A stretch of 64,000 nt of DNA, taken from positions 224,001-288,000 of the forward strand of contig CAWGHO010000003.1 of NCBI GenBank assembly GCA_963822445.1, in the 5' to 3' direction. Source of the stretch: an uncultured Acidobacteriota bacterium. Lineage in GTDB: Bacteria; Acidobacteriota; Thermoanaerobaculia; Gp7-AA8. Under the pieces are notes generated by a model, which searched no databases, was not told where the DNA came from, and saw nothing but the letters and a program-made list of their open reading frames with translations. Numbering within the stretch: the stretch's first letter is position 1; every line of letters starts with the position of its first letter. Shown one piece after another: positions 29,096 through 33,125 of this stretch. The position numbers were made by a program, and so were the translations under genes.

Positions 29096-30366
29096 TCCGG
29101 GGAGAGTTCTCGACGCCTTGCCCGGATTCGCGACAACAAGACTTCGTTACCGGGTCGTGACGCTCAAGGCGAGTCCAAACCAGCTACCGTCGTCCGAAGC
29201 CGCGATCTTCGGGACAAACGAAATGACTCGAGCACTCCTCGCCCTGCTTCTCATCCTCGGACAATTTCCTGTCGCCGCCGCCACGCGCCGGCGAGCGGTG
29301 CAACATCCGTCACCGCCCGTCCCGCCAGCGGCCATCGTGGCGGCCGCAACTCAGGTCGCCGAAGCTGCATTGAAGGCGGGCGTTCCGGCGGTTCAGATCG
29401 CGGTGTCCGAGCGCGGACGGATCATCTACTCAGAAGCATTCGGCCTGACCGACAAACTCAGTGCGACCGCGGCAACACCGAAATCCGTGCTGCAGATCGG
29501 CTCGATCACGAAGCAATTCACTGCAGCGGCGATTCTCCGGCTGGCCGAGCGCGGGGCTCTGACCCTCGACGATCGCATCGAGAAACACCTTCCGGAGTTC
29601 AACCCCCGAGGAGCGACGATCACGCTGCGGCAGCTCCTCACTCACACTTCGGGAGTTCGTCGCGAGTGGTTCCCACCCGGGCCGCCGGGGATCAACCTCA
29701 TTGCGCCGGTCACCCGTGAGCAGACCATCCAGGGCCTGAACAGCGGGCAACTGCTCGATTCCACGCCCGGCACGAAGTGGAGCTACAGCAACGCCGGCTT
29801 CATGCTGCTCGGCCTGGCGATCGAATCGATCACGGGTACGTCGTACGCCGATTTCATCCATACCGAGTTCGCGTTGCCGCTCGGGCTCCTCGACACCGGC
29901 GTGTGCGGAACGTCCAACCTGCCGGTGCCTGAAGGTTACGGCCTGTCCGGAGCGACGTGGACGCGAATGCCGGCGTTCCATCCGACGGTGATCCTGTTTT
30001 CCGGTTCGCTTTGCTCGACTGCATCCGACCTCGCCCGCTGGGCGCACCTCCTCGCAACCGGCCAAGCCATCCTGCCTGATTCGTACGCGAAGATGATCAC
30101 CCCCGCACGGCTCGCGAACAACGTCAACGTGCTTTACGGACTCGGCCTGGACGTGAAGAACGTGCTCGGGCGTCCGGCCGCGGCGCACGGCGGCTCCGTG
30201 TGGGGCTTCGAGAGTTTTCTCCTCTATTTCCCCGAACAGGAGATCGCCGTGGCGGTCATCACGAATGCGTTCCCCGGACCAGATGAGATGAGAAGGCCAA
30301 CCTCCCACGCAGTCGCAGGAATCTGCGCTGCAAGGAATGCGTCGAGCGCAAGAAAGGAGATTGGCC

Positions 30367-31473
30367 GTGAAAAAGTCTACCAGCGTCGTCACGTGTACGA
30401 GCATGCAGAGCAATATCCGTGAAGCCGAGGTGATCGGGATCGATCTTGGAGATCGCGCATCGCACTTCGTGGGTCTGAACAGAAGCGGCGAAGTAGTGGC
30501 CACAGGAAGGGCGACGACGACAGCGACGGCGATCGCCAACGAGTTCGGCGCGATCGGACCAAAGTTGATCGCCATCGAGACAGGTACCCACTCTCCTTGG
30601 GTCTCGAGACTGCTCACGCAGTTGGGCCATCGCGTAGTCGTGGCCAACTCCCGAAAGCTTCGTCTGATCTACGAAAACCGCCGCAAGAACGACCGCGTTG
30701 ACGCCGAGTACCTGGCACGGCTGGTGAGGATGGACCCGAAACTGCTCGAGCCGATCACGCATCGTTCCGAGCGCGACCAGCAGCATCTGGCACTTCTGCG
30801 TTCGCGCGACAAGCTGGTGCGGACTCGCACAGGTCTGATTACGCATGTTCGGGGCACGGTCAAGTCGATCGGTCTGCGGCTGCCGGCTTGCTCTGCAGAG
30901 GCGTTCGTAAGTCGGGCGATGCCTCTGATCCCGAAAGAGCTGAAAGCTGCTCTTGACCCTGTTCTTCGCAACGTCGAGCAGCTGAACAAAGACATCGCCG
31001 GCTACGACCGCAAGATCGAGCAACTCGCCAGGACCGAGTACCCGGCCGCGAAGCTGCTCATGCAGATCACCGGTGTGGGACCCGTGACGTCGGTGGCGTT
31101 CGTGGTCACGGTGGGCGACCCGGGCCGGTTCAGGAAAAGTCGCACGGCGGGAGCGTGGGTCGGTCTCACGCCGGGCCAATCCGCCTCGGGTCAGCAGGAC
31201 CCCCAGATGAGGATCACCAAAGAAGGAGACAACTATCTGCGACGGCTACTGGTCAGTTGCGCGCAGTACATCCTCGGGCCGAATCGACCAGACTCGGATC
31301 TGCGCCGGCACGGGTTGGCGCTGGCGGCGCGAGGCGGAAAGAACGCGAAGAAACGAGCCGTGGTCGCGGTCGCACGAAAACTCGCGGTGCTCATGCACAG
31401 GCTGTGGCGTACGGAAGGCGTGTACGAACCTCTGTTCAACGCCAACAGGAGTGCCGAGCACTCAGCAGCTTGA
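30367..31473 (+). CDS. IS110-family DEDD transposase/recombinase
   Basis: AAAGGAGA RBS before GTG; GIDLG, IETG, KNDRVD (DEDD); GVGPVT; LTPGQSASG (catalytic Ser region); ITKEGDNYLRRLL; AVARKL. Confidence 0.95.
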   Translation: MKKSTSVVTCTSMQSNIREAEVIGIDLGDRASHFVGLNRSGEVVATGRATTTATAIANEFGAIGPKLIAIETGTHSPWVSRLLTQLGHRVVVANSRKLRLIYENRRKNDRVDAEYLARLVRMDPKLLEPITHRSERDQQHLALLRSRDKLVRTRTGLITHVRGTVKSIGLRLPACSAEAFVSRAMPLIPKELKAALDPVLRNVEQLNKDIAGYDRKIEQLARTEYPAAKLLMQITGVGPVTSVAFVVTVGDPGRFRKSRTAGAWVGLTPGQSASGQQDPQMRITKEGDNYLRRLLVSCAQYILGPNRPDSDLRRHGLALAARGGKNAKKRAVVAVARKLAVLMHRLWRTEGVYEPLFNANRSAEHSAA

Positions 31474-31719
31474 GAACCAGGTAGAACCGATCAGCAAAGA
31501 AAGAAACTCGACTCGATCCCTCATCCGGGTGACTGCGAGCGGCGGCTTGGTCGGCAGCGATGCCAGACCGTGGACCAGATGGCAGCACCCAGTTGAATCG
31601 GACCTCAGCATGCACCGAGCTCGATCGAGCTCACCAAGAGTGCGAATGGAAGCAAGGTCAGGACGAGCGGCGAGAGACAAAGGAGGGCGGCGCCACGTCG
31701 CCGCCCCTTGACAGGATCA
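31474..31719 (+). ncRNA. Predicted bridge/seekRNA in the 3' non-coding region (boundaries approximate)
   Basis: Hairpin 31527-31590 carries GGCGGCT and GGACCAG, matching the target; hairpin 31601-31659 carries ATGGAAG, matching the element end; terminal hairpin 31685-31706. Confidence 0.8.
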
Positions 31720-31821
31720 GGCCTTCTCATGGAAGCCGCCTACAGGCCACACCTCCTGGCCGCCGCCGTGGCGCAAGCCGCGCTCCCCGCGCAGTAGCGA
31801 CCATTAGCACGGGAATCGCGC

Positions 31822-33125
31822 ATGACTGCCATGGACGTTTTCTCGATCCGATCGCTCTCCCGGTGCTTCGCTATGGCGCTCGCCGCGACGATCGTCGCCG
31901 GCTCCGCGCTCGCGGATCAGCGAGTCATCGTTCTCCTTCAGCCATCGCAAGGCGCGCGATCGCAAGCCGCAACGATCGATCGCAACGCGCCGCGCATCTA
32001 CGCGAAGTGGCGCGTCGTTCCGGGATTTGCCGCGACGGTTGACGACGCGGAGATGCAGCGCCTCCGCAACGATCCCGCCGTCACCTCCGTCGAACCCGAC
32101 CTCGGCGGCAGCGTGACCGCCGTTTCGAGCGAAGGGTCGATCGGCCTCAACGGAGAGCTGATCGGCCTTCCCGCGGTGCATGCGCTCGGCTACGACGGCA
32201 CCGGGAGCACGGTCGCGGTGCTCGGCACCGGCGTTTCGCCGCACCCGGATCTGAACGGCCGCATCGTCGAAGAGCGTTGTTACTGCGCGTATGCGAACGG
32301 CCAGGGATGCTGCCCGAATGGCGCAACCCAGCAATTCGGCACTGGTTCCGCGCGCGACGACCTCGGTCACGAGACCAACGTCGCCGGGGTCATCGCCGGC
32401 AGAGGCGGCATCGCGCCCATCGGGATCGCGCCGGGAGCGAAGATCGTGGCGATCCGCACGAACGACGCCACCGGCAACATCGCCTGGACTTCGCAGGTGA
32501 TCTCGGCACTCGATTCGATCCTAGCCAGCCCGGTCCACGTCGACGCCGTCAACATGAGCTTCGCCATCGGCTTTCTGTCGAACAACGCGTGCGACGGGGA
32601 TAACCCCGCACTGACCGATGCGATGGCACGCGTGCGCGCTCGCGGCATCGTCCTCGTCGCAGCGACGCGGCGACGAAGGGAATCCGTCCGCCCGCCTGCA
32701 TCTCGGGGGTTCTTTCCGTCGGCGCGGTCTACCACACGAATCTCCCGTCGGCTTCGCTGCTGGGATGCACCGACACGCCCGCGGAGGTCGATCGTGTCAC
32801 GTGCTTCTCGAACTCCGCTGCGCAGCTCGATCTCCTCGCGCCCGGTTACCGCGTTCAGTCGCCGGCGAAGAATGGTGGAGTCTCGAACGCCAGCGGAACG
32901 TCGTTCTCAGCGCCGCATGTGGCCGGGGCCGTTGCCCTGCTGCGGCAGATCGATCCACAGTTGACGCCCGACGCCATCGAGGAGCTGCTCGAGTCGACGG
33001 GACGTCCGATCGTCGACAGCCGCAGCGGCATCACCACGCCGCGCCTCGACCTCTTCGCGGCAGTGATTAAGCTGCGTCTGAATGCGACGCCGGCGGGGCC
33101 GCGGCGCCGCTCTGTTCGGCACTGA
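31822..33125 (+). pseudogene. Subtilisin-like S8 peptidase, inactivated
   Basis: Signal and prodomain; AVLGTG (catalytic Asp replaced by Gly); GHET; a 10-bp deletion near 32664 removes SGN and shifts frame; SGTSFSAPHVAG; C-terminal RRRSVRH. Confidence 0.85.

Follow-up and report, generated by a model that had tools for sequence, protein, structure and literature searches.

Putative target-loop handshake bases in the predicted two-loop RNA of an IS110-family element with IS1111 layout from an uncultured Acidobacteriota bacterium

The window analyzed here is the whole 64,000-nt stretch of DNA from an uncultured Acidobacteriota soil bacterium, and all positions refer to it. It carries a 1453-bp insertion sequence at 30283–31735, which belongs to the IS110 family and shows the IS1111 layout: the recombinase gene comes first, and the predicted bridge or seek RNA lies downstream (Table 1). 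The open reading frame is preceded by 54 nt and followed by 262 nt of noncoding DNA within the element, an asymmetry characteristic of the IS1111 subgroup. The element interrupts a gene for a β-lactamase-family serine hydrolase (PF00144; 28992–30282 and 31736–31788) 22 codons ahead of the stop codon; in the genus, nine orthologues are intact.

The recombinase features the domains DEDD_Tnp_IS110 and Transposase_20 and is recognized by the NCBIfam model NF033542, "IS110 family RNA-guided transposase," at 228.9 bits (cut-off 140). An alignment of its C-terminal domain to the solved chains of IS621 and ISCro4 gives E of 4e-7 and 1e-6, respectively, and the region of the Ser residue aligns to IS621. 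Among 13 relatives, D36, E81, D119, and D122 are invariant, and S284–G285 is nearly or fully invariant. As judged by its sequence, the protein combines a DEDD RuvC-like domain with a Tnp domain carrying a putative catalytic Ser-Gly, the architecture expected of an IS110-family bridge recombinase. The translation contains GLTPGQSASG, which follows the IS1111 subgroup motif GL-P----S/T-G; at 378 aa, the protein exceeds the 330 to 350 aa quoted for the IS1111-type family (PMC11187229), and the IS1111 assignment rests on the layout of the element.

Table 1. Features of the insertion sequence, its target, and its predicted RNA (window positions)
Feature	Position	Strand	Remarks
Whole insertion sequence	30283..31735	+	Three identical copies with differing flanks; unoccupied repeat copies; nine uninterrupted orthologous genes
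Left target half GGACC and core AG	30276..30282	+	Host side; matches the guide 31572–31578
Left terminal extension ATGAG	30283..30287	+	Outside the inverted repeat; first two bases AT are the putative partners of A31579–U31580
Left subterminal inverted repeat ATGAGAAGGCC	30288..30298	+	Reverse complement of 31720–31730; conserved in relatives
Recombinase gene	30337..31473	+	378 aa from the first ATG; Pfam PF01548 and PF02371
Predicted target-binding loop	31527..31590	+	Closing stem 31527–31536/31582–31590; inner stem-loop 31549–31569
Predicted 5' target guide GGCGG-CU-U	31541..31548	+	Reverse complement of A-AG-CCGCC at 31733–31740; would pair with the + strand of the right target half
Predicted 3' target guide GGACC-AG	31572..31578	+	Equivalent of the right target guide of IS621; would pair with the − strand, left target half and core
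A-U, putative handshake-guide equivalent of the target loop	31579..31580	+	Directly 3' of the core-pairing end of the 3' target guide
G, single linker base before the closing stem	31581	+	G 24, T 20, A 13 (n = 57)
Predicted donor-binding loop	31601..31659	+	Closing stem 31601–31605/31655–31659; inner stem 31612–31615/31640–31643; hairpin 31617–31632
Predicted 5' donor guide CUCA	31604..31607	+	Reverse complement of left-end bases 2–5
Predicted 3' donor guide AUGGA-AG	31646..31652	+	Identical to the right end 31729–31735, the last seven bases of the element
C-A, place of the IS621 donor-loop handshake guide	31653..31654	+	C matches the first host base 31736; A has no match to 31737
Right subterminal inverted repeat GGCCTTCTCAT	31720..31730	+	Pairs with 30288–30298
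Right target half CCGCC, host DNA	31736..31740	+	Common to the three copies, flanks diverge after it; continues the unoccupied repeat

The genome holds three copies of the element, which are 100% identical and differ in their flanks. Common to the flanks of all three are only GG(A/T)CCAG on the left and CCGCC on the right, beyond which the flanks diverge. The bases 30276–30282 are host DNA, since copy L003 reads GGTCC there while the copies of the element do not differ from one another. A host repeat occurs elsewhere without the element; in 12 of the 14 such unoccupied copies inspected, GGACCAG runs straight into CCG(C/G)CG—in its fuller form GCCGGCGGACCAG followed by CCG(C/G)CGAG—and one unoccupied copy matches the left flank of element copy L001 over 25 nt and its right flank over 21 nt. 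The genome contains 12 matches to the repeat pattern and five exact GGACCAGCCGCC sites. As these empty sites carry a single AG, the inserted DNA is 30283–31735 with an AG on both sides. In addition, the orthologous genes from the genus are uninterrupted at the insertion point of the window copy in nine of nine cases, and, read by eye, excision of 30283–31735 preserves the reading frame and leaves a tail of the length seen in the orthologues. The ends of the element are fixed by the unoccupied host-repeat copies, the nine orthologous genes, and 97 related elements.

The target is the 12-bp sequence GGACC-AG-CCGCC, in which AG is the core. The AG flanks the element at 30281–30282 on the host side and at 31734–31735 in the right end, and the boundary could equally sit 2 nt leftward. 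The shared core, CT on the other strand, is found at both boundaries with no other duplication, as is typical of IS110 elements. The subterminal inverted repeats are 11 bp long, which lies within the 7 to 17 bp of the IS1111 subgroup; the left repeat starts 5 nt from the left end, and the right end lies 5 nt past the right repeat. In the window copy, the left end reads as a tandem of ATGAG-ATGAG (30283–30292).

Two other placements of the left boundary are refuted by the unoccupied repeat copies: one after GGACCAGATGAG-AT (model A) and one after GGACCAG-AT with GGACCAGATGGAAGCCGCC as the target (model B). A search of the own genome for empty sites under these two models found none with up to three mismatches, the near matches being only the element's own guide. 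A gapped pattern for empty sites gave seven matches in 35 genomes of the genus compared with six for the reversed control, with no empty site among them. For the empty sites of a distant relative, genome G374 held no exact match and 13 one-mismatch matches, compared with eight in the control.

The repeat that carries the 12-bp target belongs to a GC-rich palindromic family (...GCCGGCGGGACGCCGGCGGACCAGCCG(C/G)CGAGGACGCCGGCGCTCC...), which is abundant in the genome—with examples at C3:175489, C2:149810, and C1:1139620—and across the genus. Two of the three element copies lie inside this repeat (flanks of L001 and L003), the last 25 to 35 nt of the flanks of these two copies being repeat sequence. 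For the host genome, the finding is an ordinary one: the insertion sequence occurs three times, twice inside a repeat element and once within the 3' end of a gene.

Relatives of the element were collected from the species-representative genomes of the phylum, from a scan of genome contigs, and from a scan of metagenome contigs for which 13 aligned recombinases served as the seed. This gave 114 loci, 103 of which were parsed for RNA motifs and ends; the 11 unparsed ones are mostly located at contig ends. Exclusion of six rows with visible parsing errors (L125, L146, L094, L095, L046, and L099) leaves a final set of 97 elements with 81 distinct guide pairs. The RNAalifold input consisted of 57 sequences, and changes were counted on the recombinase tree for 55 rows. 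Unpublished genomes contribute the single rows L006, L014 (G002), and L032 (G195), and G041 enters the search tallies only; no conclusion depends on these. In one relative with 83% identity (L023:1400–1510), unrelated, GC-rich DNA takes the place of the left end upstream of ...GCGCAGTCGCA, and truncation or rearrangement of this copy is probable. A distant relative with two copies (L031 and L050) has in each of them three additional bases, CAG, that separate the left target matched by the guide from the left end AG-ATAAGG and that none of the boundary models tried explains.

The RNA predicted downstream of the recombinase gene features two loops. In the target loop, RNAalifold finds 17 pairs, eight of which show compensatory changes—one pair being GC in 25, AU in 16, and CG in 11 sequences—and the G·U cells of the alignment fit transcription from the + strand. 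In the donor loop, the inner stem GCAC/GUGC is kept in 55 to 57 of the 57 sequences; its closing stem is claimed for the window sequence only, since the column-wise test failed with the alignment out of register between clades. Folds of the single sequence are undistinctive (z of −1.27, and a minimum free energy z of −1.64 for the 185-nt RNA). No Rfam family was found in 30000–32000 at E up to 1, and the search of sequencing runs listed no RNA run, the best DNA run having 0.10 of the words.

The guides of the first loop follow the flanks of the element. Among the relatives, the 5' target guide covaries with the right flank, as in GCCGGCTT with AAGCCGGC (also given as GCCGGCUU with AAGCCGGC), and the 3' target guide covaries with the left flank, e.g., GAGCCAG with GAGCCAG in L022. 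The core of the 3' target guide is nearly invariant (A in 57 and G in 56 of 57 sequences). U31548, next to the 5' guide, also matches the product in the window, yet T is found here in only 13 of 57 relatives. The guide for the top strand (31541–31548) stands 5' of that for the bottom strand (31572–31578), which is the order of the IS1111 subgroup.

The guides of the second loop follow the ends of the element. The 5-mer of the 3' donor guide equals the 5-mer of the right end in 80 of 84 elements and occurs in the states ATGGA, ATAGA, ATGGC, and ATAAG. The reverse complement of left-end bases 2–5 is found at a fixed place in the 5' strand of the donor loop in 27 of 48 cases. Divided by type, it occurs in 8/13 elements of its own type versus 4/35 of other types, and correspondingly in 19/28 versus 5/20, 2/4 versus 1/44, and 1/1 versus 0/47. 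Most relatives have ATGGG-ATGAG at the left end versus ATGAG-ATGAG in the clade of the window, and the 5' donor guide shifts too (CCCA versus CUCA). As the guides track the flanks and the element ends, respectively, the first loop is assigned to target binding and the second to donor binding. The donor loop would thereby read short extensions that lie outside the inverted repeats, and the predicted RNA has the makeup of a bridge RNA, with one loop each for target and donor and putative guides for both strands.

The core dinucleotide is identical at four places—both junctions and both guides—in all 47 elements compared, being AG in 45 and AA in two. On the − strand, these read CT and TT, and the AA variants thus keep the T of CT. 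This agrees with the rule for CT cores, in which the T is nearly invariant and the C may vary (PMC11208158). The two AA elements, L053 and L037, are distant relatives in which both junctions and both guides have changed at once, a four-way covariation.

Two further features lie between the donor loop and the right end. A GC-rich hairpin (GGGCGGCG...CGCCGCCC) at 31684–31707, located between the donor loop and a TTGACA box, is kept in close relatives; it may delimit the RNA on its 3' side or be part of a longer precursor, and the promoter scan flagged it on the − strand only. The TTGACA box itself (31708–31713) lies 22 nt from the right end, is kept in most relatives, and is a candidate −35 element of a promoter completed across the circle junction. 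Such a promoter is known for ISEc11. A promoter scan of the linear sequence 30200–31800 gave no σ70-like site.

Two matches between guides and junctions had been pointed out in an earlier note on this DNA, which proposed that the guides extend into the products of recombination. Both are present: GGACCAGATG, the 10-nt match of the target loop, is found at 31572–31581 and at the left junction 30276–30285, and ATGGAAGC, the match of the donor loop, at 31646–31653 and at the right junction 31729–31736. The junctions thereby implied, host/IS between 30282 and 30283 and IS/host between 31735 and 31736, agree with the unoccupied repeat copies. The extra bases 31579–31581 and 31653 fall, as the earlier note stated, outside the match to the substrate and match the junctions only; the empty sites run from GGACCAG into CCG(C/G)CG. 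The 10-mer occurs only at these two places in the 64-kb window, compared with a shuffle mean of 0.11 and at least two matches in 2 of 100 shuffles. The 8-mer has three matches in the window compared with a shuffle mean of 1.69, with at least three in 25 of 100 shuffles, and taken alone is within chance; its meaning comes from the relatives, in which the donor guide equals the right end as given above.

The bases next to the core of the 3' target guide, A31579–U31580, match the AT at the left end of the donor and not the cognate target, which continues with CC. Position 31579 is A in 43, G in 12, C in one, and T in one of 57 sequences, and position 31580 is T in 53 of 57. The left junction can be trusted in 56 guide pairs; all of these have AT as the first two bases of the left end, and their RNA reads AU in 37, GU in 17, CU in one, and AC in one. 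The first base thus matches the left end in 38 of 56 pairs—55 of 56 with G·T pairs included—and the second base in 55 of 56. The only common substitution, A to G at 31579, keeps G·T pairing (17/56). Across all parsed elements, four deviant RNA dinucleotides (AC, CT, AG, and TT) occur without compensating changes in the left end. Conservation at AU/AT is therefore seen without covariation, as neither partner varies informatively.

The neighboring positions behave differently from this dinucleotide. G31581 matches the third left-end base in 21 of 56 pairs, about the frequency expected from base composition or chance, and the following G31582 belongs to a closing-stem pair in all 57 sequences. 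In the donor loop, the base at the handshake position matches the host in 35 of 63 cases for the first base and in 19 of 63 for the second. Sorted by type, the RNA base equals the first host base in 16 of 44 cases for C, 18 of 18 for G, and one of one for T. On the recombinase tree, the base at the position of C31653 changes three times and the host base 12 times, with two independent contrasts only; a shuffle test on this base (34/57 versus a mean of 19.9) was set aside because one clade drives the association. C31653 thus appears not to be tuned, its base not tracking retargeting, and for both G31581 and C31653, the best reading is that of fixed scaffold bases that match by coincidence in the clade of the window. 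The handshake-like reading of the earlier note, together with the conservation among homologues by which it was to be checked, consequently holds for A31579–U31580—by position, polarity, identity to IS621, and pairing in 55 of 56 relatives with G·T included—and fails for G31581 (21/56) and C31653 (3 versus 12 changes).

A clade of L079, L087, L092, L105, and 14 other guide pairs has a G after the core in both loops, and all of its targets begin with G. The donor-loop G of this clade also looks paired in the closing stem, with guide and stem overlapping. Its first target-loop handshake base, G, equals the first base of the cognate target, which would form a pair before exchange and is unfavorable under the rule derived from IS621.

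It is very improbable that the junction matches are mere chance extensions of ordinary guides. Such an origin would suit the 8-mer, which is no rarer than chance in the window, as well as G31581 and C31653, which behave like chance matches. It is at odds with the shuffle mean of the 10-mer and is largely refuted for 31579–31580 by the family survey, in which the AU/AT match is kept.

In IS621, an element of E. coli, the 3' guide of each loop (RTG or RDG) pairs with the top strand across the CT core, and the next two bases, 81–82 and 166–167, are the handshake guides (PMC11208158). After exchange of the top strand, these pair with positions 6–7 of the other DNA (PMC11208158). The handshake guides of IS621 are AU and GU, its donor positions 6–7 are AT and its target positions 6–7 GC, which gives one pair before and three pairs after exchange (PMC11208158, PMC13626964). 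Pairing before exchange blocks insertion in this system, and pairing after exchange promotes insertion and disfavors excision (PMC11208158, PMC13626964). The equivalence of A31579–U31580 to a handshake guide is based on their position and on the identity of AU/AT to the target-loop guide of IS621 (PMC13626964).

Carried over to the window, the IS621 scheme assigns the − strand as the top strand, because the 3' guides run in the sense of the + strand. The top-strand target would then be GGCGG-CT-GGTCC and the donor circle junction ...CTCAT-CT-TCCAT..., and the 3' guide of each loop would pair with the top strand through the core, like RTG and RDG. A31579–U31580 would be unable to pair with G and G at target positions 7 and 6 and would be complementary to T and A of the donor. 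Once the first strands had been exchanged, these two bases would hold on to the donor strand coming in, as A81–U82 of IS621 do with dT7–dA6. In the donor loop, C31653 would pair with G7 of the target after exchange, and A31654 would stay unpaired. The two bases directly 3' of each 3' guide, 31579–31580 and 31653–31654, are thus predicted to be complementary to the noncognate positions 6–7 in three of four cases and to the cognate positions in none; counted as Watson-Crick pairs in the window, this amounts to zero before and three after exchange. In the relatives, pairs after exchange outnumber pairs before exchange in 43 of 43 guide pairs. By the rule of IS621, the step from zero to three pairs would push insertion forward and hold the inserted state against excision. 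From this parallel, we infer the strand exchanged first, the pairing during the reaction, and any effect on its direction; insertion is plausibly favored over excision in this element. Covariation with position 7 of the noncognate DNA, which Hiraizumi et al. described for the donor-loop handshake position among IS110 orthologues (PMC11208158), was not seen here: the target-loop partner is AT in 56 of 56 guide pairs, and the donor loop offers only two independent pairs. Taken together, we consider it probable that the locus holds an element of the IS110 family in IS1111 layout with a two-loop bridge RNA in which A31579–U31580 act as the handshake guide of the target loop.

The lack of covariation at AU/AT would also fit a different explanation, namely that AU and AT are each conserved for reasons of their own and that strand exchange makes no use of their complementarity. 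AU could be an RNA scaffold or a protein contact by the closing stem, and AT could be an end recognized by the recombinase or part of the circle-junction promoter. This fits the invariance of AT (56/56), the RNA deviants without compensation, and the neighbors G31581 and G31582, which are clearly scaffold; moreover, given the conserved TTGACA 22 nt from the right end, the left-end bases could serve a junction promoter. Nevertheless, we regard such separate causes as unlikely, although deserving of some weight, as experiments have identified this dinucleotide, equally placed with respect to the CT core, as a handshake guide in IS621, the substitution of A to G keeps its pairing with T, and pairs after exceed pairs before exchange in every guide pair compared.

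An opposite role could be assigned to the same bases if the extended matches recognized the junctions of the integrated element as substrates and promoted excision and circle formation rather than biasing insertion. The 10-nt match is the full match to the substrate of excision, and retargeting of ISEc11 needed changes of the donor flanks together with the seekRNA (PMC11187229), which would suggest that the RNA reads the junctions during excision. In IS621, however, the corresponding pairing before exchange lowered excision, and its native pattern is said to suppress excision (PMC13626964); in addition, the extra bases contribute just two to three pairs. A role in excision is hence judged improbable, and the reading of A31579–U31580 as a handshake guide that would support insertion is preferred.

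A wider interpretation is tentative, and we hold it with somewhat less than even confidence. The handshake may be ancestral to the IS110/IS1111 superfamily and hard-wired here on one side only, with an invariant AU reading an invariant AT and an untuned handshake in the donor loop. A handshake wired in this way would let every retargeted descendant keep its bias toward insertion with no need for retuning. Relative to the polarity of the CT core, the RNA gene sits at the same end as in IS621, with the RNA and recombinase genes transcribed the opposite way.

The published control of insertion versus excision at the RNA level in bridge recombinases is the handshake guide, which has been studied in IS621-type elements only. 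The same AU/AT arrangement together with the opposite gene layout suggests a general rule. For the design of IS1111-type systems, it hints that the dinucleotide following the 3' target guide should continue to match the donor end. The family survey itself yields approximately 80 natural variants of the guides for which the ends, the core, and the donor-loop code are defined. In the accessible full-text literature, no handshake guides are described for an IS1111-type element, and the 2024 covariation supplements of Durrant et al. and Hiraizumi et al. may cover them; the accessible text of PMC13626964 names IS1111 in its reference list only, and that of PMC13604230 mentions IS1111 and handshake in separate contexts.

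Compared with IS621, the system shares the two-loop RNA, the 3' guide of each loop on the core-bearing strand, and the CT core. In both, two bases directly 3' of the guide match positions 6–7 of the other partner, and the AU of the target loop stands opposite the AT of the donor. Both have one Watson-Crick handshake pair in the donor loop, with totals of three after versus zero before exchange here and three versus one in IS621. The element features several differences: the recombinase gene precedes the RNA, and the guides within the loop follow in reverse order; it carries 11-bp subterminal inverted repeats, with a donor loop predicted to read short extensions outside them; and one linker base precedes the closing stem compared with four in IS621. 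The base at the donor-loop handshake position shows no covariation with the target, and the recombinase is only distantly related (E of 4e-7 over the C-terminal domain).

The IS1111-type seekRNA elements ISEc11, ISPa11, and ISKpn4 of Siddiquee et al. 2024 (PMC11187229) resemble the present element in the long noncoding region downstream of tnp and in the subterminal inverted repeats. In them, too, the top-strand match stands 5' of the bottom-strand match, both meet at the insertion point, and the target lies inside a repeated palindromic element (PMC11187229). The accessible text describes target matches alone for these elements, with no donor-binding loop or product-matching bases, unlike the RNA predicted here (PMC11187229). 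The prediction of Durrant et al. 2024 for the IS1111 group places a bridge RNA in the right end, with loops complementary to target and donor, as in the window (PMC11208160). In that prediction, the donor-binding nucleotides often lie in a multi-loop, whereas the putative donor guides here flank a simple stem-hairpin, as in IS621 (PMC11208160).
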